From IMG/VR virus record IMGVR_UViG_3300005264_000005, positions 1-64,000 of that record: 64,000 nt of DNA; one strand, 5' to 3'. Below, piece after piece: positions 8,398 to 56,788 of the stretch. Origin of the DNA: a virus. Every line of letters begins with the position of its first letter. Position 1 is the first letter of the stretch. The position numbers were made by a program, and so were the translations under genes. The notes beneath the pieces were generated by a model, which saw nothing but the letters and a program-made list of their open reading frames with translations, was not told where the DNA came from and did not search any database.

Positions 8398-9022
8398 TAT
8401 TTTTTAATCTACCTCTTTTGAAATTACTATTTTCTCTAAGAAAGTCTTCAGTTGACTTATCTTGCTGCATCTTAGCGGTATACTTTATTGAAATTTTCTT
8501 ATTACTTAGCCAAACAAAGCCTTTATTGTTAGCTCCACCTTTTTTTCCATTGGCTCTTTGAATTTCAGGCATCGTAAAGGCACCAACCTTTCCTCCAGCA
8601 GAAGCGGCCTTTAATCTAAGTTCAGGATTATAAAAAGAGCTTAATTGCTTTTCTTTTAAGGTAGCCTGAGCTGCCTTACCACCAAGAGAGGCCCATTTAA
8701 TTCTTTCATCTTTATATTTAGGATCCAATATTCCGACTTGAATTTCCTTAACTTTATTACCGCCTACTTTACCGTCAAAGCTTGATGATATCTTATGTGC
8801 CTCAGAAAAATTATACCCTATCATGTGATAGGCACATAAATCCCTAAAGTCACCAAGCTTATTATATCTATCTAAATGAAATGCCTTATGCATTTCTTTT
8901 GATAAAGGTATAAGATTATTCATATCATCAGTACCGCCATCATGCCTAGGTACAATATGATGCACTTCATAGTCATTTGGTATATCACCATAAGAATCAG
9001 TAAATTTCTTTCTTAAAGACAT
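8378..9022 (-). CDS. Free-standing HNH homing endonuclease between the split-intein halves
   Basis: EVHHIVPRHDGGTDD..NL..L....H...H motif; GGK repeats. Confidence 0.9.
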   Translation of the reverse strand: MSLRKKFTDSYGDIPNDYEVHHIVPRHDGGTDDMNNLIPLSKEMHKAFHLDRYNKLGDFRDLCAYHMIGYNFSEAHKISSSFDGKVGGNKVKEIQVGILDPKYKDERIKWASLGGKAAQATLKEKQLSSFYNPELRLKAASAGGKVGAFTMPEIQRANGKKGGANNKGFVWLSNKKISIKYTAKMQQDKSTEDFLRENSNFKRGRLKNNENKIN

Positions 9023-9053
9023 AAGCCCTCCAATAGTAGTTTAGTTAATAATA

Positions 9054-9064
9054 TGTTAATAACT
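9054..9064 (-). promoter_or_regulatory. Putative phage late promoter AGTTATTAACA (representative copy)
   Basis: Same or near-identical motif about 25-55 nt upstream of several endonuclease and spanin genes (see findings). Confidence 0.6.
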
Positions 9065-9083
9065 AGTACCAGAGGGCTTAACA

Positions 9084-9731
9084 TTAAAAGCCTACAATTT
9101 CATCGTCTTCAGTTAATTTATCACATCTCTTCCAGCCACTAGTAGTCTTGAGCTTATGCTCAGCTGTAAATCTATATGAATTACCATCTTCAAACTCAAT
9201 CTCATACACTTCAGACATGCCGTTAACAAAAAGGCTTGTAACTAATTTCTTATCATTATTCTCGTCATACACATAAGTATTAATTGTAGGCTTAATCCAA
9301 GTACCAGCCTCAATGCTTTCTAAGTTATCAATGCCGTTCTCAGTAAAGATATCAGCCATAGACTTAACACCTTCACTTGTAAGAACTTTAGTCCTAGGAG
9401 ATGTACACCCGCTAGGCTTGACTACAGTAATAGCTACTGGACAATTAATACCAAGAGCTTCTGCCCATACAGCAGCAGTGCTATGAGTAATGCCTTTGAT
9501 TTCCTTTAGCCATCTTCTAGCATCAAGATCATCAACTTGAAGGATTGGATGATCACACGTACCAGTAATGCTAACGCCTAGTAAACGCTCTTCTTCACAA
9601 TTATCTTTCCATTGCTTGCGAAGAAACCCAAAGTCAGTAAGAGTGGACTGCAAGACACCGAGAATAGTGGCATGCTTAGCCTTAAGCTTCAAGTCATCTA
9701 GCGTGTCAGATGCAGAAACAACAATTTCGCT
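9084..9731 (-). CDS. nrdJ: NrdJ N-part exon 2, ending in split-intein N-fragment (9087-9407, 107 aa)
   Basis: SEIVVS..ILGVLQSTLTDF..EERLLGVSITG..VKPSG|CTSPRTKVLT..FTAEHKL..W...L..DDEIVGF*. Confidence 0.92.
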   Translation of the reverse strand, partial: SEIVVSASDTLDDLKLKAKHATILGVLQSTLTDFGFLRKQWKDNCEEERLLGVSITGTCDHPILQVDDLDARRWLKEIKGITHSTAAVWAEALGINCPVAITVVKPSGCTSPRTKVLTSEGVKSMADIFTENGIDNLESIEAGTWIKPTINTYVYDENNDKKLVTSLFVNGMSEVYEIEFEDGNSYRFTAEHKLKTTSGWKRCDKLTEDDEIVGF

Positions 9732-10507
9732 CAGTTATATTCAATGGAAGTCGTTAGGTTCCACCAGGGACTAGGAATAAAAATTATTAATCCATTTTGC
9801 AAATTGTAATAGCTCATCTTTACTAGCAGCACCCTTCATTGAGTTTGCTAGCTGAGAGATAACTTGGATATTATCTTTAGTATATCCTTTATCATTATCA
9901 ATTCTATCTAAGGATGGTGAGTTTTTATAGACTCCAGACCTTCCAGAATTCATATTTATATTGATTCCTAACACAGGACACTTATTTGGTATCACTATAT
10001 CAGCAACTTCTATATTAAATTCTAGTCCTGATTTCTTGCATCGCATTTTAGCTCTTTGATGCATTTTCCACTCAGGAGTCAAAGACTTAACTCTATTGCT
10101 ATTACACACTTTACACATAGTCATCTTACTTGTAATTTCAAATATCATTCCACAACTAGTACATTGTCGATGAGTTTTTGAAACAAGATAACCTTCTCGA
10201 TTTTTAATTAATTCCATTATAAGCTCCTGTTAGTTAATTATGTAATTTTACATTGTTACATAGTGCTAATAACTACAAATAGCTTATAACCCATCTATAT
10301 GTTTCCATATAGCTTAGACTATATCATCACCCCATTGCTGGGGGCTAGGCGCTTCCGCTCACTTGAGCGTACTCCCTGTCGGGATAGTCGTTGAACCTTC
10401 CTCTTTCGAGGCTTGGATGCTGATTGCCTTCGTCTTTAAACGGTCAGGGTTTCCAGCAGTTCACCTAGTTTTCGACATACATTACTGTATGAAGTCTCTG
10501 CAAGTTA
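9732..10507 (-). mobile_element. Group I intron in nrdJ (776 nt)
   Basis: Exon ends ..TGT AAT CTT (U), intron ends ..ATAACTG (G); splicing restores QFCNL-SEIV; R element GTTCAACGACTA and S element GATATAGTCT present. Confidence 0.92.
9771..10217 (-). CDS. Intron-encoded HNH-type endonuclease
   Basis: CxxC zinc motifs, CPVLG, SPSLDRIDNDKGYTKDN. Confidence 0.88.
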   Translation of the reverse strand: MELIKNREGYLVSKTHRQCTSCGMIFEITSKMTMCKVCNSNRVKSLTPEWKMHQRAKMRCKKSGLEFNIEVADIVIPNKCPVLGININMNSGRSGVYKNSPSLDRIDNDKGYTKDNIQVISQLANSMKGAASKDELLQFAKWINNFYS

Positions 10508-45726: not shown

Positions 45727-46194
45727 TTAGTTTTTAGGTATTACATCACTGTAGTCTTCTAAATACTGTACATTATCTGCAATCTTTAATAATTCAAGGG
45801 AAGTGAAATCTCTAGCACCGATAACTGTAGTAATAGCACCTTGCTTAGAGCATAAATCTAAAGCATATGCAAAGTGGCCGTCTCCTGAAACGATAATAAC
45901 TGCATCTGGTTTTAAATTCTTATAGTCATTCGTTAAGTCTGCAATTAAGATATGATCTACATTAGTATCTTGACCAATATCAATTGTGACACACTTGTAA
46001 CCATTATTACATAAGTATGTAATAAAACCTTTTTGTGAATCTGAATCTTGATCAAGCGCCATATACGATGTAGCTTTAATTACATCGTACTTTTTATTTA
46101 CTTCATCTAACAGACATTTAAAATTTAACTTCTTATATCTGAAAAAAATATTGTTCTGATCAATACACATAATAGCTGTTGGCTTATTTGCCAT
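45727..46194 (-). CDS. NYN-domain (PIN-like) protein
   Basis: IDQNN, VD..L..D, VSGDGHF, S..L...AD. Confidence 0.85.
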   Translation of the reverse strand: MANKPTAIMCIDQNNIFFRYKKLNFKCLLDEVNKKYDVIKATSYMALDQDSDSQKGFITYLCNNGYKCVTIDIGQDTNVDHILIADLTNDYKNLKPDAVIIVSGDGHFAYALDLCSKQGAITTVIGARDFTSLELLKIADNVQYLEDYSDVIPKN

Positions 46195-46204
46195 AAATTA
46201 CTCC

Positions 46205-46828
46205 TTAAGAATATGTTACTTTAAATGCTAGGTTCAACATAGTAGTTGGCCTACTGGCTTTATATGTAAATGTATGAACATGCTCAACTTTACAGTTATG
46301 ACTCTCCGCTATCTCGGAAATTGCATGAGAAATATCATCTTGATTCTTAATTGCAAGCCTATGCATATTAACACCAATGCCAGTTATTTGAAATGTGAAA
46401 AACACTAAGCCACCGTTAGCGACATGTTGCTTTTCAAAAACTTTGTCAATTAAGGAAGCCGTACAATTAGGCTTACCGTTATCATAGAAAAAAGTACAGA
46501 AATCTAGGTTTACTACATCATAGAAACGCTTATGATCAAACTCACAAAAGTGCTTATATGCATCAATTGGAACAAGATGCTTAAATTGAACTTTCAACTT
46601 CTCATATTCGCCTGATTCATTCCAGCTTTTAAGTTTAGGAAGATTATTTTCACAAATAGTCATGAATTTAACATCTAAATTATCAGCATAGTAATTAGCA
46701 CCAATACCGCCACCTAAAAATTCAAAAAAACGAAGATCTTTATTATCTATATAGCTCTTAATTACAGCAACATTTTGAGGCCTTGAATACTTTTCTTTAT
46801 TATCATTATTATCTTCAGTTTTGCTCAT
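46205..46828 (-). CDS. SAM-dependent methyltransferase-like protein
   Basis: EFLGGG.G, YDVVNLDFC. Confidence 0.5.
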   Translation of the reverse strand: MSKTEDNNDNKEKYSRPQNVAVIKSYIDNKDLRFFEFLGGGIGANYYADNLDVKFMTICENNLPKLKSWNESGEYEKLKVQFKHLVPIDAYKHFCEFDHKRFYDVVNLDFCTFFYDNGKPNCTASLIDKVFEKQHVANGGLVFFTFQITGIGVNMHRLAIKNQDDISHAISEIAESHNCKVEHVHTFTYKASRPTTMLNLAFKVTYS

Positions 46829-46842
46829 AAATAACTCCGTTT

Positions 46843-46868
46843 AAAAGCCCCCGGTTTCCCAGGGGCAA
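46843..46868 (-). terminator. Intrinsic terminator
   Basis: Minus strand GCCCCTGG-GAAA-CCGGGGGCTTTT. Confidence 0.65.
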
Positions 46869-46874
46869 TCAAAT

Positions 46875-47357
46875 TTACTTACTCTTGTTCATTGCAGCTT
46901 CTCGAGCACGCTCTTCTGACTCAAGCGCCTCCTCTACAGCAAAACGCTGTGCATGAACCTCAAACCACTTAGCAATAGCATAAGCTTCGTCAGACTCTAG
47001 GCTGATATTAGCTTTCTTATCACCCTCTCTCATCATGATAGAAACCTTACCATTATAGATATTAGCAGTGAGCTGCTTTTTAGCATCGCCTTTGCCTACA
47101 CTTTTGCTCATATCAGCAAATTTCTTCAGCTCAACTTCAACTCCCTGAGACATTCCCAAGAACTTAAAAGATGCTTGAAACATTTCAAGGGTTCTAAAAG
47201 AAATACTACAAGTTTTATCATAATCAAATCTTACTTCGCCAGCTTGTGGCTGACCCTTGCTTGCTCCTGCAATGCCTGGAGTGATACGGATAAAAGCTCT
47301 TTTCTCTGCGCCCCATATAGACAGCTCGATTACTGAATTAGTGCGATAAATTCTCAT
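46875..47357 (-). CDS. Hypothetical (possible ssDNA-binding) protein
   Basis: 160-aa ORF next to SpoVG-like gene. Confidence 0.45.
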   Translation of the reverse strand: MRIYRTNSVIELSIWGAEKRAFIRITPGIAGASKGQPQAGEVRFDYDKTCSISFRTLEMFQASFKFLGMSQGVEVELKKFADMSKSVGKGDAKKQLTANIYNGKVSIMMREGDKKANISLESDEAYAIAKWFEVHAQRFAVEEALESEERAREAAMNKSK

Positions 47358-47377
47358 ACTTGTTCTCCTAGTTTAAA

Positions 47378-47788
47378 TTAACCCCAGGTAATTGTCTTTT
47401 TACCTGGGCTCTTTTCTGCCGTTTCAACAGAATCCTTTTTAGCTTCCTCAGCGTCTTTGACAACAGGATTAGTGGCCATAACAACATCAACCTTCTTTTC
47501 AGAGGCTTTTCCGCCATTAGTAATGCCCATCTTCTTATTAAATTCAGAAACGATATGGTCCCCAATCTTATCTTTTGCTTCCATAGATGTAAAGGTAACT
47601 AATGCTACGTAATCACCATCAGCCTTTTTCTTTTGAGGCCAAGAGATAAAAAGTCTACCGTCTTTACCTGACTTTATAATAGTAAATTTTACAACAAGAG
47701 CTTCATTGAATGTAATCATTCCATATCCAACGCCACTGCCTGTATCAAAATTTGAAACAAAAACTTTAGTTTCAGTAATTTTTAACAT
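47378..47788 (-). CDS. SpoVG-like nucleic-acid-binding protein
   Basis: KITE.KV..ITFNE.LVV...II...G.LFISWP.KK..DG.Y. Confidence 0.7.
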   Translation of the reverse strand: MLKITETKVFVSNFDTGSGVGYGMITFNEALVVKFTIIKSGKDGRLFISWPQKKKADGDYVALVTFTSMEAKDKIGDHIVSEFNKKMGITNGGKASEKKVDVVMATNPVVKDAEEAKKDSVETAEKSPGKKTITWG

Positions 47789-48074
47789 ACTTTCTCCTTA
47801 TTAAATACGTACAACAGCGCCTTTTTTGGCTTCATACATACCTGGCTTCTCATCTGATAAGCTATTAAATAGCTCAAAAATAATATCACTTAATTGGTCA
47901 ATAAGGCTTCCGCTAAATAACATAGTACCTTCATGCTTCAATACTGAAACAGGACCTTCACCGCTATTGAGATCAATTTGAAACTTATTTAAAACAAGAG
48001 CAATATCAGGACCATCTTCAATTTTCACTGAAGCAGACCCAGAAGACTCTCCTGTTTTGCTTATGATAATCTTT

Positions 48075-48560
48075 TTAATTATAAATGACATAACTATAAA
48101 CTAACTCCTTTATTTCATCAAGATTACTATGATTATATATACAGTACTTAGACTTCGGAAGCTTAACAGACTGTCTTAGTTTCTTTAAACTAAATCCGCC
48201 AATTCTATTACGATTAGCTTCACTGCCAAACAGAGATATAAATCTATCTTTATTCTTTTCATGCATAACTAAAGAAGGACTAACTGCAATATTTAAGCAA
48301 TCTAGCCTATTAAGACTAGGACAATCAGACTTATTATAGCCAATCCTGCTATTAACAGATTCTGCAATTACAGTATGTCCAAGATCAGAAAGCCTAATAA
48401 CTTCTGTATAGAAGCCCATGTAGCCACCGTTGCCGTAAAATAGTTCATAATTAACAATCTTACATTCACCTATCTTATCCGCTAATTGAGCCACTAGATA
48501 TGTTTTGCCTGAATACGGAGCACCATTTACAAATATAATCTTACCACTAGAATGGTTTTG
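48075..48560 (-). CDS. P-loop kinase-like protein (start uncertain)
   Basis: IIFVNGAPYSGKT. Confidence 0.6.
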   Translation of the reverse strand, partial: QNHSSGKIIFVNGAPYSGKTYLVAQLADKIGECKIVNYELFYGNGGYMGFYTEVIRLSDLGHTVIAESVNSRIGYNKSDCPSLNRLDCLNIAVSPSLVMHEKNKDRFISLFGSEANRNRIGGFSLKKLRQSVKLPKSKYCIYNHSNLDEIKELVYSYVIYN

Positions 48561-48768
48561 GGCTAGATCCGTCATAAGACAATTCTTCCCTTGAATAACC
48601 GTTAGCTTCTGAGTAGCCATTAATTTTACCTTGGCAAACAGTAGGTACAGTTGCAATAGATGATCCACATTCTTTACACTTAAGTGTTTCTATTAAGCTA
48701 TAGCTACATAATTTAGTAAACTCATATTTACACTCTTCGTTTACACATCTTAATAGATATTGTGGCAT
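48547..48768 (-). CDS. FmdB-like zinc-ribbon protein
   Basis: MPQY..RC....C...F...C..CGS. Confidence 0.7.
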   Translation of the reverse strand: MPQYLLRCVNEECKYEFTKLCSYSLIETLKCKECGSSIATVPTVCQGKINGYSEANGYSREELSYDGSSPKPF

Positions 48769-48770
48769 AT

Positions 48771-49955
48771 CTATTCTCCTTCCAAGTAAGCAATAACATC
48801 AACTTTCGCCTTTGCTATCTCATCTCTAATCGTAACATTCTCATTTTCATACGAATATTTCTTTTCATGAGCGGCCCATATTTTCAATATACCATACTTT
48901 AATATGCCCTTGCCATTAGCTACTTCTAGAATTTTTTGCGATGAAACCCTACTTACCAATTCGCTGAAGAAATGACCAGAATAGCTATCACAAAAAGCAA
49001 TAGTTGACTCATTGCAGAATCCAAATATACTAGTTATATATAGATTCCTCAATGCATACAAGCTAGAGATATAGCTAGTAGAAAAAGTATTATTAATGTC
49101 ACACTTAACCATATTGTAATTTAAAGGCTTGCCAGAAACTATATCATAAAATACATTATATGCAATCTGAGCAACCAGCATATTAATAGGCATTGATTGA
49201 TCGTTCTGTAAAGTCATGTCCGTACAGCTTAAGACCTCAGTATCTTTAAAGTTTAAGTACAGATTAAGCAAAGAAGGCAGGCAAGGAGTTTTGTATTTAG
49301 GCTTAATACTAAAATCACAATTTAAATCAGCATTAATCGTACTAATAATAGTACCGATTTCAGACTCAGGTGTAGCTGATTGAGAATAACTAACTCTTGA
49401 TTCTGATGAAACTAAAACTTGCCCAAACGTATCTTCGTTACCACAGCTAATAATAGTAATACAGCCTCTATTGATTCCATTATCTTCAATAGACTTACGA
49501 GCATTTAAATTATCAGTACAGTCAAAGATAATGTAATTTGCATCAGAGCCACCATGCAGATTCTTACCAGTCTTAAATCCACACTCATCAAAACGATTAT
49601 TAAAATACTCAATATCGAAACCGAATAAAGCAGAATATCTCTCTGCCATAACCTCAGCTTTACCTTTGCCTATATCGAAACTAAAGAAATTCTGTCTCTT
49701 TAGATTTTTATGTTCTACTGTATCCATATCAATTAAGATTAATTCCATCTTATGTTTGATATATTCAGTATTGCGAATATTACTTTCTATTTCATTGTTA
49801 TGATTTGAAATATGCTGTGCAATATTAGGAATTATCCTGCCGCCAGTACCACCGCATCCAACAACAATAATTTTCGTTACACCGTAGCTGCGAGAAAAAT
49901 TCTTTAAGTTTGGTTTAAATTCCACTGATCTTAATTTTAATAAATCAACATTCAT
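48771..49955 (-). CDS. ThiF/E1-like ubiquitin-activating enzyme (PRTRC-type)
   Basis: VVGCGGTGG, D.D.VE.KNLKRQNF, KA, DCTDN..AR, GN...GQV, SC (catalytic Cys) ..Q...IN. Confidence 0.9.
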   Translation of the reverse strand: MNVDLLKLRSVEFKPNLKNFSRSYGVTKIIVVGCGGTGGRIIPNIAQHISNHNNEIESNIRNTEYIKHKMELILIDMDTVEHKNLKRQNFFSFDIGKGKAEVMAERYSALFGFDIEYFNNRFDECGFKTGKNLHGGSDANYIIFDCTDNLNARKSIEDNGINRGCITIISCGNEDTFGQVLVSSESRVSYSQSATPESEIGTIISTINADLNCDFSIKPKYKTPCLPSLLNLYLNFKDTEVLSCTDMTLQNDQSMPINMLVAQIAYNVFYDIVSGKPLNYNMVKCDINNTFSTSYISSLYALRNLYITSIFGFCNESTIAFCDSYSGHFFSELVSRVSSQKILEVANGKGILKYGILKIWAAHEKKYSYENENVTIRDEIAKAKVDVIAYLEGE

Positions 49956-49967
49956 ATAAATATCCTT

Positions 49968-50735
49968 TTAAATTCTATCTCTAACGCTGTTCCATAAACC
50001 TGCATATCCACTTCGTGCAGAAGGAATTCCGTATTGAGAATATGAACTTCTATTATTAATTCTAGGACCAGCATTATCGGTTGCTGGTTTTGGTGTTTGA
50101 ATAGAAATATTCTGCATACTTTTTTCAAAATCGAGACTGAATGATTCAGTTGATTCGCAAAATAAGTCATCAAAATCAGCATCTACATGAGTACCCATAG
50201 TGCTAAACCTAGCTTTAAATTGAGGTATAACTTTATTAATTCTACCCATAACGCCAGAATATCGATCTCTATTGTCATCAGCGTTATCTGTACTAGACCA
50301 GAATGCATTCATGTTACTTGTATGAGAATGTACATCCATAATAAGCTTACAGTTAGGGAAGTCAGTCCATAAATTAGATAAATCATACTTAGCTGACCCT
50401 GCACCAATAGCTTGTATCGGTACATGTAGGAAATATTTATCAGTTTCAGTATTATACATAATTAAAATATATGCTTCTAATTGCTTATTAGCATTATCTA
50501 ATTCAACATACCTAAAGAATTTTTGTATCTCCCAAAACAGAAGAGCTGGTATCTTCCTTGGCAGAACAGCAATATCAGACTCGCCTACTGGCAATCCAAC
50601 AATACCGTTAATTTTTACTGTAATATAGCCACAGCCACAAGCCTTGACTAAATAAATGCCATCCGAGCACAGGCAATACGTAGCTAATCCAAGCCCAGTT
50701 TTGTCTTCCGGAATTCCTTTAATAATATCAAACAT
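49968..50735 (-). CDS. JAB/MPN metallopeptidase (PRTRC protein A-like)
   Basis: E...DVHSH...AFWSSTDNADD. Confidence 0.88.
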   Translation of the reverse strand: MFDIIKGIPEDKTGLGLATYCLCSDGIYLVKACGCGYITVKINGIVGLPVGESDIAVLPRKIPALLFWEIQKFFRYVELDNANKQLEAYILIMYNTETDKYFLHVPIQAIGAGSAKYDLSNLWTDFPNCKLIMDVHSHTSNMNAFWSSTDNADDNRDRYSGVMGRINKVIPQFKARFSTMGTHVDADFDDLFCESTESFSLDFEKSMQNISIQTPKPATDNAGPRINNRSSYSQYGIPSARSGYAGLWNSVRDRI

Positions 50736-51397
50736 TAAATAGTTCCTAACGTATAGTTACGACCAGAATCAACATATAGCTGATCAGGAAATTCTTCTTT
50801 TCCTTTTAGGAAATTAAATAAACCTAAAGGAGTATCAAATCCAACATGACGAAATAATGACCCTTGGAATAAATCATTATTAAATGGTGCATTAAACAAT
50901 CTATTGATATAATTACCAAGACCACAAAGTGATTGAAATTCACCAGATAAAACAGATCCACCACCCCAACACACCCAGCCACTATCACTTACATTTGGAA
51001 ATGGAAGATTGTATAAAATAGTATTGTCATTAAAAAACATAGGAGCATCTTTAACTGCCCATGCAAAAGTCTGACTTAGTGTAAAGTTTTTTTTATTTAC
51101 CTGTAATTCAAACTTCATAATTACACCAGGACGAATACAGTCAGTAATTACTTCGGACTTATAATTGGCATCAAACTTAACAGGAGGCGAATAAAGGAAT
51201 AAGAATGCTCTATTACCTTTTTCTTGCCATTTAATAGTTCCAACAGGTAAAACAGGAGTATTAATACCAGTACCTTTGTCTTGGAATGCCTTTACTAAAG
51301 ACTCAATCTTAACAGTTTTCTTAAATAAGCTATCGCCACCATTTCCATGAGTAACAATAGCTGCATTTTCTCTTATTTCAATTAAAACATTTGACAT
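50735..51397 (-). CDS. Prokaryotic E2-like protein (PRTRC protein B-like)
   Basis: T.LY.LPFPNV...G.VCWG...F..PFN.D. Confidence 0.85.
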   Translation of the reverse strand: MSNVLIEIRENAAIVTHGNGGDSLFKKTVKIESLVKAFQDKGTGINTPVLPVGTIKWQEKGNRAFLFLYSPPVKFDANYKSEVITDCIRPGVIMKFELQVNKKNFTLSQTFAWAVKDAPMFFNDNTILYNLPFPNVSDSGWVCWGGGSVLSGEFQSLCGLGNYINRLFNAPFNNDLFQGSLFRHVGFDTPLGLFNFLKGKEEFPDQLYVDSGRNYTLGTI

Positions 51398-51402
51398 AAA
51401 TA

Positions 51403-52323
51403 TTACTCCCGGAGTGTGCTAGAGACAAATTCTATATAAGTTTGCAGCTCAAGCATAAATGCATTTGTGTTTCGAATTCTGGCTTCATTAACGCTATATT
51501 CAAATACATAATGCATAGACATAAGAATATCAGTAATCGCACAAGTAGCCTCTTCTAAATCGCTGACCTTATCATTAGCCATGGCATACAAGTATAAAGT
51601 TTCAGCTGCACTGCTAAGTGTATCAAAGCCGCCTCTAAAGCTGTTAATATAAATACTATGACCAACACATCCCTTTAATAGTAAGCATACTTCAAAAGCA
51701 GTGAATCTGTAGTCAGCATTTATATTACAATTAATTAAAATATCATCCTTAATATGCTTTTTAAATTCAGTAAAAGGCTTGGCTAAATTTTTAAGTTTAA
51801 TTAAATCAATAAATGCCTGATCAAACATCTCTTTAAAAAAACTCTTATTGCTATTAACCTCTGTACTATCAAGTTCAAGATAAGCACTTCTTTCTGACAT
51901 TGCTTCAGTTAATAATCTATGAACATTTAAGTATACGCTTAATTCTGATGCAGTGTGACTTAAATTAGATTTGCCAATAAGCATTTCATTGTTACAGTCA
52001 AGAATTTTACTTAAATGACTATAGTATCCTTTTTCCAATCTCTGTATAGAGGCTGCCCAATTGTTCCACTTAGAATAAGAATACGTAATCGTAACAGATC
52101 CATTACTTATCCTTATATTATCAGTGTGCTCAAACAGATTAGCAGCCTTTAGCTCTCTTATCCAATGAGTTTTAATAAAGAAAGAAAGCTTTCTCTCCAT
52201 ATCAGAACTAGTATGAGCAGAAGATAAAGAAGAAGACTTAATGACTTTGTTTGTATATAAAAGGTATTGCAAATATGCATTTGATAATAAAAGTAAGCTA
52301 CTATGCACTTGTTGATCATTCAT
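51403..52323 (-). CDS. Hypothetical protein in Ubl operon
   Basis: 306-aa ORF between the Ubl and E2 genes. Confidence 0.55.
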   Translation of the reverse strand: MNDQQVHSSLLLLSNAYLQYLLYTNKVIKSSSLSSAHTSSDMERKLSFFIKTHWIRELKAANLFEHTDNIRISNGSVTITYSYSKWNNWAASIQRLEKGYYSHLSKILDCNNEMLIGKSNLSHTASELSVYLNVHRLLTEAMSERSAYLELDSTEVNSNKSFFKEMFDQAFIDLIKLKNLAKPFTEFKKHIKDDILINCNINADYRFTAFEVCLLLKGCVGHSIYINSFRGGFDTLSSAAETLYLYAMANDKVSDLEEATCAITDILMSMHYVFEYSVNEARIRNTNAFMLELQTYIEFVSSTLRE

Positions 52324-52651
52324 TAATGCTACCTCCTAGCATAGACATGAAGTAATCAAACTCAATGTCAGTTTTCATTTGTTTAAAAATTATTTTAAGA
52401 TTTTTTTCGGACTCCGTAAACTCTTGATATCGCTCAATGCTTAAGAAAGCTGTCTTAATCTTTGATTCAACATCTTCTATGACAGACAGTCTTTTAGTCG
52501 TTGTTGCTCTGGCTATTTCTTTACATACATCATCAACCTTAGACATATCAATTGATATAATAGACTCAGATTCATCAGGTAGATCAATAATTAAATCACA
52601 TAGAGATTTATCTTCTAAAGAAGTTTCAATAACTTCTACAGCTTCTTCCAT
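52316..52651 (-). CDS. Hypothetical acidic protein in Ubl operon (probable start 52651)
   Basis: SD AAGGAG before MEEAVEV. Confidence 0.55.
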   Translation of the reverse strand: MEEAVEVIETSLEDKSLCDLIIDLPDESESIISIDMSKVDDVCKEIARATTTKRLSVIEDVESKIKTAFLSIERYQEFTESEKNLKIIFKQMKTDIEFDYFMSMLGGSINE

Positions 52652-52709
52652 AATAACTCCTTTGAGAATTGAAAATAATGGGGGAGTATAACCTCCCCCA
52701 TAGAGCAAT

Positions 52710-52910
52710 CTATCCTTTTGTGCCAAGGCGCTCAGCGAAAGTAATGTATCGTACACCGTCTTCGACAGTGGTTGTAGAAGTACAGTTTAGGATATATGGA
52801 AACAATCCAGACATTTGATTTTTTACTGTTTCAGCATCAAAATCACCCTTAAGCTCAGATACTTCTTCAACATTCGCAATAGACACTACAGTTTTAATAA
52901 TTTCAGACAT
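52710..52910 (-). CDS. Ubiquitin-like protein (PRTRC protein C-like)
   Basis: 66 aa; FP.I.N...ITF....GTKG C-terminus ending in Gly. Confidence 0.85.
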   Translation of the reverse strand: MSEIIKTVVSIANVEEVSELKGDFDAETVKNQMSGLFPYILNCTSTTTVEDGVRYITFAERLGTKG

Positions 52911-52995: not shown

Positions 52996-53970
52996 TTATT
53001 GGTAATGATCAGCATTGAACTCAAAATCTTCTCTGTTTATAAACTGATTATGGACTCTGTATAAATATCCTATATTAGTAAGTAGCCCAAATGATGCTAA
53101 AGCCCAATCTCCTAATTGAATAGACCAGCCTCTTTTAATAAATTTTTCTACTCTAAGAAACTGATTAATCTTATCTGGTAAGATTTGAAATATAAGAACC
53201 TTATCGCGAATAGCATGTAGCGTACCTTTATGCCAATATATCTGACTTCCATCATATGCAATAGAGCTATGCTTAAAATCAAACTGACTTATTAAGTCTT
53301 CAGGACAAGCATAAATTTTTTTCATTATCTGGAACCTTAAACCAGTATCTTTTTGACAATACTCAATAAGATGTTCCTTCTCGGTACCAGTATAGTTATC
53401 GTTTTTCTTGAAGTATTGATTTACACTTTCAAAGTCATGATCACTGCTAAAGAATAAATCAAAATCACTTTCAATTGTATCAACACCAGCAAACCAATTA
53501 ACCATTTTGCCACCAGCTAATATAAAATTTAACCCTTGACCATAAAGCCCATCAATGACCTCCATGATAGCGGTAGTTGTATGGTTATTCATCTTAAATT
53601 TGCGGATAAAAACTTCACGCTCACAACTCAAGCAAATATTATCAAATCTTAATAACTTGCACAACATAGGCTTATAAAACTCTGTCATAAGTCCTTTGAT
53701 GTCACTGGGCTTAATATTTACCAGCTTCTTGTGCTCTACTTTAGTTGATGTAGAAAATAAATCTTTACCAGTGAAGTCAAGGTTTTTTAGGTTTTTAACT
53801 TCAGCAAAATCCGTAGATACTCTATTAGCCTTAAGCGTAGTGATCTGAGTATTAGACCAGTCATCAGCAGCTGACATAGCATAGCTTGAAATAGTAGTTA
53901 TATTATTACCACATGGAACAGTTAAGATAGGCTCTACTCCAAGAGCCGTACCCATAAAACTAGCTGACAT
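52996..53970 (-). CDS. Nucleotidyltransferase (class II/poly(A)-CCA head-like) with N-terminal extension
   Basis: ILAGG...SDFDLFF...FQI...FDF...R..K...RGW. Confidence 0.75.
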   Translation of the reverse strand: MSASFMGTALGVEPILTVPCGNNITTISSYAMSAADDWSNTQITTLKANRVSTDFAEVKNLKNLDFTGKDLFSTSTKVEHKKLVNIKPSDIKGLMTEFYKPMLCKLLRFDNICLSCEREVFIRKFKMNNHTTTAIMEVIDGLYGQGLNFILAGGKMVNWFAGVDTIESDFDLFFSSDHDFESVNQYFKKNDNYTGTEKEHLIEYCQKDTGLRFQIMKKIYACPEDLISQFDFKHSSIAYDGSQIYWHKGTLHAIRDKVLIFQILPDKINQFLRVEKFIKRGWSIQLGDWALASFGLLTNIGYLYRVHNQFINREDFEFNADHYQ

Positions 53971-54322: not shown

Positions 54323-55099
54323 CTACCGATTCAGCAGTCTTTTAGCATCACAAGTCTTCTTGTAACGCATTAGTTTCAAATATTGCTCTGGATTGACACT
54401 ATTTAAGTATGCCAAGTATCCCATCTCTTCACTTGAAACATTTCCACTATAGATAGCAGCTCTCAATTTCTTGCGAGTCTCTCTGTTCATGGAAACTTTC
54501 TCATTGACCGTCATGCCGAGAACTTTTTGTGATGAATTCTTATATGAATATTGAATCTTATCGTTCCTAACTCTAAATCCACTATATCTAAGTCTCGATC
54601 TAACTGTATCAATTAAAGCTTTAATATCAGGCTTATCATAACCAGATATTGTAATATCATCAGCATACCTAGAATAATCTAGATTGCCTGTATCTAAAGA
54701 TTGATTTAAATCTTCATCAAATTCTCTTAAAATAATGTTTGAAATAATAGGACTACAAGGACTACCTTGAACTAGCTTATTCTCATAAGTAGATACTTCA
54801 CTCTCATATTCATCTAGAAAATACAAATCACTTTTCCTTATAGATGGAAAAAAATCAGCTATATCTATATTGAGAATCCAGTCTTTTTGAGTATGCATAA
54901 CAGCAGCGTTACTTGCACTAGACCCCTTTCTGAATCCATGACAAAAGCTTGATATCCACTCATCTTCCTCTAGCCTATTTTTAATTCTTCTTTGCTCTAG
55001 CTTCAACTCCTCACATGGAGCATGTATAATTCTTTTCTTGCCATTCTTTTTCTTACGATAATATATTTCATACAAAGACTTCTTATCGCTTAAAATCAT
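54323..55099 (-). CDS. Retron-class reverse transcriptase (258 aa from the ATG at 55099)
   Basis: KKNGKKR.I.AP, HGF, NA..H (region X), DIADFFPSI, QGSPCSP.ISN, YSRYADD, VLG (region Y VTG variant); SD GGAGGGAG. Confidence 0.9.
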   Translation of the reverse strand: MILSDKKSLYEIYYRKKKNGKKRIIHAPCEELKLEQRRIKNRLEEDEWISSFCHGFRKGSSASNAAVMHTQKDWILNIDIADFFPSIRKSDLYFLDEYESEVSTYENKLVQGSPCSPIISNIILREFDEDLNQSLDTGNLDYSRYADDITISGYDKPDIKALIDTVRSRLRYSGFRVRNDKIQYSYKNSSQKVLGMTVNEKVSMNRETRKKLRAAIYSGNVSSEEMGYLAYLNSVNPEQYLKLMRYKKTCDAKRLLNR

Positions 55100-55109
55100 T
55101 TTACTCCCT

Positions 55110-55740
55110 CCTATAGCAAGAGGCCGAAGCCTCCTACAATAGCACTTACTCGGCCAGGTTTTAAACCTGGCAACGAAAGGCTGAACTCGCAGAGTCAGAG
55201 CTCTTGAGTTCAGTTTAATTAATTGCCGAAACAGCAATTATGAATAACAAAAATTGTATAAAAAGAAATTTCTTTCTTAGAATACCAATTAAATTGACAG
55301 AGGAGATTGAAAACGAATAGAAATTTGTATCCTTTGGATACTAAATTTTCTTTCGTAGCGTAAGTTTTGCTGTCACCTTTGGTGTCTGCAATTTTTAATC
55401 CCCGCCAGTCAATTGTAATATTCTGAACCGCGAGTGTGAAGCACGAGCTTCAACACGTACATAGACAACCGAAACGATTGTCAAAAAAATTGTATAAAGA
55501 ACTTGCATAGCATTAACTAGTTAACATACAAGGATATACTTTCTTAAACTCAAGTAGTAGTTATGTCTACTTGAGTTTAAGAAATACTTCACTGAACTTT
55601 AGGTTTATTTCAAGTCAGAGTGAAGTCGTACTACATTCTTGCCGAAACAGCAAGAGCGCTAAGGAATAAGCAAATACAGTATGGTTAGGCATCGGTTTCA
55701 TTGTGAGTGAAGTAATTGTATTTTACACCATTAGCTTAAA
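55110..55740 (-). ncRNA. Array of three structured non-coding units upstream of the RT
   Basis: Repeated G-TTT-CG hairpin at 55637-55655, 55464-55482 and 55220-55240; TTTATACAATTTTT linkers at 55483-55500 and 55249-55264; 18-bp perfect stem 55540-55584; cUUCGg hairpin before the SD. Confidence 0.7.
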
Positions 55741-55742
55741 TC

Positions 55743-56228
55743 TTACATTACTACTGTATAGGAATTGCATCCAAAGATAGCAAGTTCTTCTGCTGTAGGC
55801 CTTTCTATTTTTCTAGCCATATTATAAATAACAGATTCTGGCACTTTTCTATGCCTACTTCTCTGCCTTAGAATACAAGTTTCAGGACTAGCATCAAAGT
55901 AATATAAGTGAAACTTACATTCCACATCTAATTCCTCTGCAAATCTTCGATATTGAGAACGCATTTCTTTAGTAAGAGACGTATTATCAATAACAATATG
56001 CTGATGATTAGGGAGCGGAGATAGCAAGATTTTCTTATATATTTCATGATGAGCTTTAAACACATACTTATTAGATGATTGTACCATGGCATCACCGGTA
56101 AACGCTTCTCTAATAATATCAGCATTAAGATTAGCATAAGACTCTAAAGAAAGCACTGTCATGTGCTTTTTCATAAACGTAGACTTACCACAACTCGGAA
56201 GCCCTATTGTTATGTATACATTTTTCAT
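55743..56228 (-). CDS. Polynucleotide-kinase-like P-loop protein (AAA_33)
   Basis: GLPSCGKST, D.IR, IDNT, R...R.R.VPE.VI..M. Confidence 0.82.
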   Translation of the reverse strand: MKNVYITIGLPSCGKSTFMKKHMTVLSLESYANLNADIIREAFTGDAMVQSSNKYVFKAHHEIYKKILLSPLPNHQHIVIDNTSLTKEMRSQYRRFAEELDVECKFHLYYFDASPETCILRQRSRHRKVPESVIYNMARKIERPTAEELAIFGCNSYTVVM

Positions 56229-56788
56229 AGGCTAAACTTCACTAGTATTTTAATTAAAAATAATAACTCTTCATCACTACTTGCAAACATTACACCTTTA
56301 ACATGCTCATTATAAAGATATTTAATACTCATGCAAGGAATGCTCTCACCAATAGCAAGCCCAAGGCTACTAGGAGAATCGTCTATGAATAGCAGTACGT
56401 TATAAGTATTAAATAACTCTTCCTTACCGCTCTCGCCAATCCATAAATCATCAAACGGTATATTGTTTTCACTTAGCCACCTTAATGTTGCACCGCAACT
56501 ATCAGGATGTCTATGAGAAGCTATAATTACACAGTAGCCAGCATCACGTAATGTCTTTACCATATTAGCGGCGCACTTAAACGGCTTATGCTCATACTGG
56601 TACATGTGAACTTTCTTAGCAGCAAGTAAAGCTTCTTCTTTAGTCATGTAATTTGTATAAAAGCCCCAATCGCCATTATTACCAGGCTTTGGACAATTAG
56701 GATTGATCTTCTTTAACTCTTTCCACCAAGGCTCACTTAAAGACCATAGCGTAGCATCTATATCTACAACAATGACATCTTTTTTCAC
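56225..56788 (-). CDS. HAD-family 5'-nucleotidase-like phosphatase
   Basis: VDIDATL, SHR, T..WL, K, FIDDS. Confidence 0.8.
   Translation of the reverse strand: MKKDVIVVDIDATLWSLSEPWWKELKKINPNCPKPGNNGDWGFYTNYMTKEEALLAAKKVHMYQYEHKPFKCAANMVKTLRDAGYCVIIASHRHPDSCGATLRWLSENNIPFDDLWIGESGKEELFNTYNVLLFIDDSPSSLGLAIGESIPCMSIKYLYNEHVKGVMFASSDEELLFLIKILVKFSL

Follow-up and report, generated by a model that had tools for sequence, protein, structure and literature searches.

A predicted phage-specific branch of the PRTRC-type ubiquitin-like conjugation cassettes in large phages

Introduction

[quoted passage not shown] The question is raised by IMG/VR virus record IMGVR_UViG_3300005264_000005, which comprises 103,737 bases and is ~65% complete. 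We analyzed its first 64 kb (positions 1 to 64,000, referred to as the window), in which a Ubl, two middle proteins termed unkA and unkB, an E2-like protein, a JAB peptidase, and a ThiF-type E1 are encoded side by side. Bacterial Ubl conjugation has so far been studied experimentally in host antiphage defense, in Bil and in Cap2/Cap3 of the cyclic-oligonucleotide-based antiphage signaling system (CBASS). The set found here recalls the PRTRC (ParB-Related, ThiF-Related Cassette), which corresponds to operon type 6d as defined by Iyer, Burroughs, and Aravind and was predicted in 2006 (PMC1779556). In full-text literature searches, neither a functional study of PRTRC or of E2 family D nor any paper describing an E1/E2/JAB/Ubl pathway encoded by a phage was found; the mechanistic work found concerns host defense (Bil, Bub, and CBASS).

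We conclude that the locus probably holds a functional Ubl conjugation cassette of the PRTRC type (operon type 6d, E2 family D) in a form specific to phages. This reading draws on sequence, structure prediction, and comparative genomics, from which we infer every chemical step and role. With a phage branch that has a G-x-K-G modifier, polyubiquitin-like precursors, a conserved hairpin, and cultured carriers, the targets of such cassettes and the reason for their presence on mobile elements become directly testable.

Operon architecture

A preliminary description of the window, made from its sequence alone, had placed these six genes and a following zinc-ribbon gene at 48547 to 52910. Every one of them is present and co-oriented on the minus strand at those coordinates, and all catalytic motifs of the cassette are intact. 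Adjacent genes of the cassette overlap by 1 to 8 nucleotides (nt) or lie 2 to 12 nt apart, and this tight spacing therefore points to one translationally coupled operon. In the direction of transcription, the features of the cassette are as follows.

52710..52910, minus strand: Ubl, 66 amino acids (aa), C terminus RLGTKG-COOH; beta-grasp in the AlphaFold2 (AF2) model, profile match to PRTRC_C
52678..52701, minus strand: terminator-like hairpin separating the Ubl gene from unkA, which may act as an attenuator or 3' stabilizer; 9-bp stem with 6 G-C pairs
52316..52651, minus strand: unkA, acidic, 111 aa; ATG at 52651 behind AAAGGAG
51403..52323, minus strand: unkB, 306 aa, mostly helical, directly upstream of E2
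50735..51397, minus strand: E2-like conjugating enzyme (Prok-E2_D, PF14460)
49968..50735, minus strand: JAB/JAMM metallopeptidase, predicted to act in precursor processing and/or deconjugation; PRTRC_A and Prok-JAB
48771..49955, minus strand: ThiF-type E1 adenylating enzyme; ThiF and PRTRC_ThiF

The ubiquitin-like protein

The AF2 model of the Ubl, built from a 23-sequence alignment (predicted local distance difference test [pLDDT], 83.9), has the order strand-strand-helix-strand-strand (E-E-H-(H)-E-E) and a flexible tail. When the model was compared by VIA-align, most of the 50 best matches were beta-grasp proteins (Z, 4 to 5.7; root mean square deviation, 2.1 to 4 over 51 to 66 residues), and they included GB1, MoaD, SUMO, Fubi, FAT10, ISG15, ubiquitin, and 8tyz_B, the Ubl chain of a bacterial E1-E2-Ubl complex. 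The top Foldseek matches were protein L/G domains and Ubls. The preliminary description had made its reading depend on a beta-grasp-like fold of this small open reading frame (ORF), and the AF2 model and the VIA-align matches agree on such a fold.

A profile of six PRTRC_C sequences matched the phage Ubl alignment by hhalign (96.6% probability; E, 6e-10), although the curated PRTRC_C model TIGR03738 found no match in the genome of the window even at an E value of 10. From plasmids of five bacterial phyla or classes, five PRTRC_C proteins end in G-x-K-G; the PRTRC_C of the temperate Ralstonia phage Dina is longer and has G-x-K-G internally. The PRTRC_C of Deinococcus ends in KKRLGTKG and the window Ubl in AERLGTKG. 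Within the phage family, conservation of the Ubl is highest at its C terminus, [RK]-T-G-[TN]-K-G, and the terminal G-x-K-G is invariant in the 23-sequence alignment. The model, the conserved C terminus, the precursor forms described next, and the profile match agree in identifying the 66-aa protein as a ubiquitin-like modifier homologous to PRTRC protein C.

The stop codon follows directly after the glycine in most of 46 loci with the cassette. In the remaining loci, the Ubl either has a tail of 1 to 3 residues or consists of 2 to 5 head-to-tail repeats, each ending in RTGTKG, as in gene 0307 of Vibrio phage D69; judged from sequence, the repeats look exactly like those of polyubiquitin genes. 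Processing of these tailed and repeated forms calls for a protease with its cut site after KG, and this would explain the presence of the JAB. Strongly acidic D/E spacers lie between the repeats in three of the loci numbered here with the prefix L (L014, L039, and L053, the last being the D69 gene). Acidic segments also occur in unkA of the clade that contains the window and in parts of PRTRC protein E, and they seem to recur in such cassettes. In a divergent cassette (L022:3473-3673 and L046), the 66-aa Ubl ends in NRTGSKA, with alanine replacing the terminal glycine, and a reverse transcriptase (RT) gene directly follows E1. A complex prediction for E1 and Ubl scored 0.12 (mark, 0.32) and was counted neither for nor against conjugation.

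The E2, JAB, and E1 enzymes

The E2 matches Pfam Prok-E2_D (PF14460) with 30.1 bits, above the gathering score of 25, and aligns with PRTRC_B around the cysteine. Its active-site motif in the window is LPFPNVSDSGWVCWGG, in which C143, N135, and G145 are invariant across 42 sequences; N135, which lies in P-F-P-N, recalls the HPN motif. The JAB falls just below the gathering score for Prok-JAB (22.9 bits against 25; E, 8e-5) and matches the NCBIfam model PRTRC_A (TIGR03735) with an E value of 6e-14 (52 bits; cut-off, 101.8). Its motif in the window is HSH..S..D, and the JAMM residues E87, H136-x-H138, S147, and D150 are conserved across 41 JAB sequences. Among JAB residues with at least 80% conservation, the Arg and Trp that are conserved in the N-terminal JAB-N domain could not be discerned.

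The E1 matches ThiF (54.8 bits; E, 1e-14), and its best NCBIfam match is PRTRC_ThiF (TIGR03736; E, 5e-20; 71.9 bits; cut-off, 144.75). GCGGTGGR, R87-Q88, D148, and C244 are invariant in 27 E1 sequences. One homologue from the clade of the window, P0015 (507 aa), has a C-terminal BRCT domain (E, 2e-9). BRCT is a phosphopeptide- and DNA-damage-associated module, and its occurrence on P0015 might reflect a connection with proteins of replication or repair.

The two middle genes

The longest ORF for unkA (52316-52756) encodes 146 aa from a GTG codon. The likely start, however, is the ATG at 52651 behind AAAGGAG, and the resulting protein of 111 aa has an isoelectric point of 4.35 and a net charge of -13. 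Homologues of unkA occurred only in three other members of the clade (L043, L003, and L143; 27 to 31% identity), and searches of Pfam, NCBIfam, PHROG, and PADLOC gave no match. Only 4 relatives of unkB were found among 1.84 billion representative proteins, and a search of the ESM Atlas with unkB returned no usable match. Its N-terminal ~60 residues are conserved, with K29, S30, K45, and K51 invariant, and the remainder is variable. The AF2 model of unkB (pLDDT, 69.5) is mostly helical and of moderate confidence.

Within the clade of the window, identity is 39 to 55% for the enzymes, 38 to 60% for the Ubl, and 23 to 31% over partial lengths for unkA and unkB; the last two evolve at ~2x the rate of the enzymes. 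A conserved slot filled by fast-changing proteins suggests that unkA and unkB may be specificity factors or substrates. We also considered whether they are homologues of PRTRC_E and PRTRC_F, or of the middle genes in a second phage lineage described below; this was rejected at the sequence level (hhalign probabilities, 0 to 1.2%), and a structural analogy to either is possible.

The hairpin after the Ubl gene

The preliminary description had noted a strong hairpin at 52678-52701 and proposed that it could allow an excess of Ubl over the enzymes. The hairpin is real: reading along the minus strand from 52701 to 52678, it has a 9-bp stem with 6 G-C pairs and a tail of UAUUUUC, and it sits between the Ubl stop codon and the ribosome-binding site of unkA. 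When the 110 nt after each Ubl gene were scanned, a terminator-like hairpin was found 3' of the gene in 36/36 distinct loci, while its stem sequences were unrelated between clades.

For comparison, other genes were scanned with identical criteria, and a hairpin of -14 kcal/mol or below was called strong. In the clustered gene set, a hairpin followed the Ubl gene in 23/23 cases (87% strong), against 31% for other genes (10% strong) and 16% for E2 (8% strong); after E1, at the operon end, the values were 79% and 50%. It is important to note that the loci in this count are related, such that the samples are not fully independent. The idea of excess Ubl thus gains strong comparative support, given the 36/36 loci against 31% of other genes. 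The conserved hairpin seems to uncouple Ubl expression from that of the enzymes, but it could equally be a 3' stabilizer of a short Ubl transcript.

Comparison with PRTRC and other known systems

The preliminary description had stated that the gene set matches PRTRC/E2-family-D systems and had proposed hidden Markov model (HMM) searches with the PRTRC families, whose NCBIfam models are TIGR03734-03742. As described in 2006, type 6d consists of a Ubl, a JAB, an E1, an E2, and a "rapidly diverging alpha-helical protein" (PMC1779556). The canonical gene order, ParB, E, C (Ubl), F, B (E2), A (JAB), and ThiF, is found on plasmid pPNAP01 of Polaromonas naphthalenivorans and, without ParB, in phage Dina, where automatic annotation has already labeled the PRTRC genes.

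The likeness of the window cassette to PRTRC is broad. Both share the core order Ubl, helical protein, E2, JAB, and ThiF; a homologous Ubl with a G-x-K-G end; and a family D E2 with a P-[FY]-x-N ... C-x-G site. The best NCBIfam matches of E2, JAB, and E1 are PRTRC_B, PRTRC_A, and PRTRC_ThiF, respectively, and unkB, which occupies the position of PRTRC protein F, fits the 2006 description of an alpha-helical protein in that place whose sequence diverges quickly. All three matches nevertheless lie well below the equivalog cut-offs (E2, 20.8 against 131 bits; JAB, 52 against 102; E1, 72 against 145). The window cassette also has two middle genes where PRTRC has one, an E1 longer by ~130 residues, and an E2 in which a histidine conserved in type 6d is replaced. 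Its clade adds a nucleotidyltransferase (NTase), a zinc ribbon, and a P-loop protein, and its carrier is a large phage in which no lysogeny genes were found, whereas PRTRC is carried by plasmids, integrative and conjugative elements (ICEs), and temperate phages. No ParB_N match was found in the 103.7-kb record (~65% complete), and none lies beside the cassette. Neither unkA, unkB, nor the middle genes of the other lineage matched the NCBIfam models for PRTRC E and F, and hhalign probabilities in that comparison were below 1%. A complete Ubl/E2 family D/JAB/E1 set of the PRTRC kind is therefore present, as had been claimed, but the scores remain below the cut-offs, the C, E, F, and ParB models find nothing, and the E2 histidine is absent; in the strict sense the cassette is not a PRTRC, since it departs from it in several defining features.

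Among phages, the closest counterpart is a cassette in the lineage of Salmonella phage Arash and Vibrio phages D69, D148, and D181 (with ~40 IMG/VR contigs), referred to as the Arash/Vibrio lineage. Its components are likewise a Ubl (ending in RTGTKG), a pair of middle genes, E2, JAB, and E1, with a hairpin after the Ubl gene and the catalytic residues kept. The E1s of the two lineages, however, form separate clades, and the middle genes of the Arash/Vibrio lineage encode a protein of ~300 aa, often basic, and then one of ~85 aa, neither detectably homologous to unkA or unkB. The Arash/Vibrio cassette lies beside terminase and virion genes and lacks the NTase, zinc-ribbon, and P-loop partners; the window cassette lies in a replication/RNA region.

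The logic of E1 adenylation, an E2 cysteine, and JAB deconjugation is shared with Bil (BilABCD) and with Cap2/Cap3 of type II CBASS, and in Bil the modifier is also a beta-grasp protein. Unlike these, the window cassette has an E2 of family D, has E1 and E2 as separate proteins, and is encoded by a virus rather than a host. PADLOC assigned no defense system; only the ThiF core of E1 weakly matched CBASS E1-E2 and BilD (E, 1.5e-4 to 2.8e-3), and Ubl, E2, and JAB had no match. The PHROGs did not recognize the cassette. Lambdoid tail assembly proteins I (a Ubl) and K (JAB plus NlpC/P60) also combine a phage Ubl bearing a C-terminal glycine with a JAB (PMC1779556), but they lack E1 and E2, lie within the tail gene cluster, and have not been proposed to act in conjugation.

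Relatives, inheritance, and cultured carriers

Approximately 50 relatives of the E1 were found in a collection of 5.8 billion proteins; ~40 of these were 36 to 54% identical, several on contigs of 100 to 400 kb. A DNA search with the operon against 50,697 phage records gave no match, and searching viral contigs for the locus with a single protein gave nothing; an alignment-based scan of IMG/VR succeeded and yielded 50 loci (numbered with the prefix L), mostly on contigs of 100 to 200 kb. By ORF calling and iterative HMM search, the order Ubl, two genes, E2, JAB, and E1 was recovered in 46/50 of them. We read the gene contexts of the window clade in L002, L003, L043, L142, and L143. In a quick IQ-TREE analysis of E1, unrooted and thus read without a direction of transfer, the 25 sequences of the window clade grouped together (SH-aLRT, 95); the canonical E1s and those of the Arash/Vibrio lineage each formed a group of their own, and the window clade lay apart from the E1s of Dina, Polaromonas, and Stanieria. 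A scan of 185,579 prokaryote species (one genome each), limited to clade-specific patterns, returned a single weak match, and the window branch of the cassette seems to be confined to viruses.

The Arash/Vibrio cassette is flanked by the large terminase gene on one side and by virion genes on the other, and it is transcribed opposite to the latter. In a census anchored on the terminase (38 to 100% identity, loci with enough flank), the cassette was found within 9 kb in 35/38 loci, and in 2 of the 3 exceptions it lay just beyond the fetched flank. A sister lineage with terminases 30 to 34% identical had the cassette in 0/13 loci and an RT in 10/13. Near-universal presence at one locus across a lineage indicates a stably inherited component and not a sporadic island gene. 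This diverged branch of the cassette is a stable and apparently important component of large virulent phages.

The same cassette is carried, unannotated, by culturable phages with tractable hosts: a tblastn search of GenBank phages recovered Vibrio phages D69, D148, and D181 and Salmonella phage Arash (OQ632216). In Arash, gp248c, gp247c, and gp246c correspond to E2, JAB, and E1 (HMM E values, 7e-82 to 1e-122). The Arash Ubl gene is present at the right end of the record (L052:1-400), where GenBank instead has the overlapping gp251c in another frame; the Ubl has 66 aa, ends in RRTGTKG, and is identical to that of IMG/VR locus L041.

Two further observations concern gene integrity. LAGLIDADG homing endonuclease genes split the JAB gene in L013, L016, and L043 and the E1 gene in L046, where they presumably sit as introns or inteins. 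In L143, the E1 gene is likewise divided, its parts lying at 8895-9158 and 9502-10311 without an intervening ORF.

Proposed mechanism and role

Taken together, the features above suggest the following pathway. The 66-aa beta-grasp protein would be made with its reactive C-terminal glycine already exposed (...GTKG-COOH) and in excess, as the hairpin after its gene would pass only part of the transcripts into the enzyme genes. The ThiF-type E1 would adenylate this glycine with ATP and probably accept the Ubl on Cys244; the E2 would then receive it on Cys143 and transfer it to lysines of target proteins. The JAB would trim precursors and/or remove the tag, with trimming needed in those relatives that have a tailed Ubl or one of 2 to 5 units. 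The acidic unkA and the helical unkB would most likely choose or present the targets or be the first targets themselves.

As for the purpose of such a pathway, host take-over or counter-defense early in infection is the leading, if tentative, candidate by analogy, and the canonical PRTRC carriers (plasmids, ICEs, and temperate phages) would face the same problem on entering a cell. A broader proposal, which we put forward as speculative, is that large virulent phages run their own Ubl tagging as an infection tool, conjugating the Ubl early to host defense or housekeeping proteins, or preemptively to phage proteins, with unkA and unkB as host-specific targeting subunits. If this is true, prokaryotes would have their first viral "writer" of a Ubl mark, and the use of PRTRC to plasmids and ICEs would be accounted for as well.

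Several points weigh against conjugation by this cassette or against the role proposed for it. The histidine C-terminal to the cysteine is absolutely conserved in type 6d E2s (PMC1779556), but the window E2 lacks it and has F-N-N in place of F-T-H. In the alignment, the canonical F-T-H is matched by F-N-[N/D/S] in the window and 12 other phage E2s, and N173 (98%) and D175 (93%) are conserved in phage E2s in the stead of the histidine; the chemistry of the phage E2s may thus differ from that of canonical type 6d. The structural scores of the Ubl are modest (Z, 4 to 5.7; Foldseek E values no better than 0.01), such Z values being expected for a protein of 66 residues. The fold search with unkB was uninformative, as Foldseek found nothing and VIA-align only generic helical bundles (Z up to 10). 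No target, E3, or recognizable substrate domain was found for the cassette, and the literature searched yields no biochemical data on any PRTRC-type cassette. Finally, the take-over or counter-defense role comes from analogy, and near-universal retention beside virion genes would fit a morphogenetic role as well.

In such a virion-linked role, which appears unlikely, the Ubl would be joined to phage structural proteins or act as their chaperone while heads or tails are assembled, or else the enzymes would be packaged and injected. This would parallel tail assembly proteins I and K. The Arash/Vibrio cassette is nearly universal in its lineage and always lies between the large terminase and the virion block, which in Arash includes a PAAR spike, and a Ubl and a JAB are known in phage tail assembly (PMC1779556). 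In addition, the Arash E1 and E2 homologues carry the GenBank label "structural protein," which in the Arash paper denotes at least 2 unique peptides by liquid chromatography-tandem mass spectrometry (MS) in particle preparations (PMC10585845). We rely here on the GenBank labels of E1 and E2 and restrict the statement to these two proteins, as the numbering in the MS table of the paper maps uncleanly to the locus tags. The Arash "structural proteome" comprises 116 proteins, among them ribonucleotide reductases, kinases, and metabolic enzymes (PMC10585845); detection is therefore no proof of packaging, and we take the labels as evidence of expression. The Arash/Vibrio cassette is moreover oriented opposite to the flanking virion genes, and that of the window clade lies among replication and RNA-metabolism genes.

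A rather improbable alternative is that the cassette is a phage-carried defense that would shield the infected cell, and with it the resident phage, by tagging proteins of competing phages or mobile elements as bacterial Bil tags phage tail proteins. Bacterial E1/E2/JAB/Ubl systems (Bil and type II CBASS) are reported to be antiviral (PMC10557695, PMC10097602); the E1 weakly matches CBASS E1-E2 and BilD in PADLOC, the middle genes evolve fast, and a retron-type RT lies close by. However, it is only the shared ThiF core that matches the defense models (E, 1e-4 to 3e-3), with none for E2, JAB, or Ubl. The stable vertical inheritance at a fixed locus is unlike that of patchy defense islands, and the clade is almost absent from cellular genomes.

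Neighboring genes

Four further genes at or near the edges of the cassette, all on the minus strand, are as follows.

54323..55237, minus strand: retron-type RT, variable neighbor outside the cassette; RVT_1 E, 5e-29; 182 bits for the retron St85 family (cut-off, 235)
52996..53970, minus strand: Pol-beta-type NTase, directly upstream of Ubl; phrog_4400 E, 9e-18; DUF2204 E, 2e-3
48547..48768, minus strand: zinc-ribbon protein, a conserved member of the cassette in the window clade, beginning 2 nt past the E1 stop; Zn_ribbon_8 E, 2.6e-4
48075..48575, minus strand: P-loop (kinase-like) protein, overlapping the zinc-ribbon gene; Walker A GAPYSGKT; weak AAA and kinase matches; start at 48575 inferred from the L143 homologue

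The preliminary description had placed the cassette directly next to the RT locus. The adjacency RT-NTase-Ubl indeed occurs in the window, L003, and L043, but it is not a conserved link: L143 has the NTase, Ubl, unkA, unkB, E2, JAB, E1, zinc ribbon, and P-loop genes and no RT, and the sister lineage has the RT in 10/13 loci and the cassette in 0/13. The NTase is directly upstream of Ubl in all four clade members with upstream sequence (the window, L003, L043, and L143). The zinc ribbon follows immediately after E1, and then the P-loop homologue, in L003, L142, and L143; in L142, the JAB, E1, zinc ribbon, and P-loop genes were confirmed. The RT is thus a variable neighbor and not a partner, whereas the role of constant partner falls, in the few loci of the window clade that were read, to the NTase, the zinc ribbon, and the P-loop protein. 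In the sister lineage (L119-L141; terminase identity, 30 to 34%), the retron-type RT lies 5 to 8 kb from the terminase in 10/13 cassette-free loci and thus belongs, independently of the cassette, to the widespread backbone genes of these large phages.

It has a low probability that the cassette is the effector or regulatory arm of an RT/NTase module, for instance tagging or activating the NTase as CBASS Cap2 does with a CD-NTase. The NTase adjoins Ubl in the four clade members named above, an RT lies within 8 kb in 19/50 loci (directly after E1 in L022 and L046), and in type II CBASS (operon type 6b, PMC1779556) a pol-beta NTase is accompanied by E1-E2 and JAB. On the other hand, L143 has no RT, and the RT is present in most of the cassette-free sister loci. 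Between the NTase and Ubl genes lie a terminator-like hairpin (52965-52950) and promoter-like sites, the NTase has neither a CD-NTase-like sequence nor a glycine at its end, and the Arash/Vibrio lineage has no such NTase beside its cassette.

Least probable is a sulfur-carrier or other nonprotein acyl-transfer role, with the Ubl as a ThiS/MoaD-like carrier whose thiocarboxylate feeds cofactor or nucleic-acid modification, since the ThiF/MoeB-type E1, the presence of MoaD among the best structural matches, and the frequency of nucleic-acid modification in large phages are set against an E2 with an invariant cysteine, a JAB, and polyprotein precursors, which are hallmarks of protein conjugation, and no rhodanese, cysteine desulfurase, or biosynthetic partner was found in or beside the cassette.

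Genomic setting

Around the cassette, the window encodes a ribonucleotide reductase, a primase-helicase, an exonuclease, a UvsX-like recombinase, a DNA polymerase, a ligase, and homing endonucleases. No tyrosine integrase and no serine recombinase/resolvase were found in the 103,737-base record, and a virulent lifestyle is plausible; the preliminary description had spoken of a lytic phage, and the lack of lysogeny genes in the record agrees with this but stops short of proof. No terminase of the Arash/Vibrio type was found in the 103.7 kb of the record, an absence that is uninformative in a partial record. The window sequence matched only DNA runs of marine-sediment metagenomes from one study, one of which may be its source, and no RNA run.

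The cassette of the window is also surrounded by RNA-related genes, namely, those for SpoVG (47378-47788), a NYN nuclease (45727-46194), a PNK-like AAA_33 kinase (55743-56228), the retron-type RT, and the NTase; the regions with such genes span 45727-48091 and 55743-56788. Downstream of the cassette, the order P-loop, 96 to 99 aa, SpoVG, ~165 aa, ~210 aa, and NYN is identical in the window and L143. The neighborhood of L143 adds Ro60 to the RNA-related genes: a Ro60-like protein (L143:4671-6095; TROVE E, 3e-18, plus the Ro60 vWA domain) is inserted there between Ubl and unkA.

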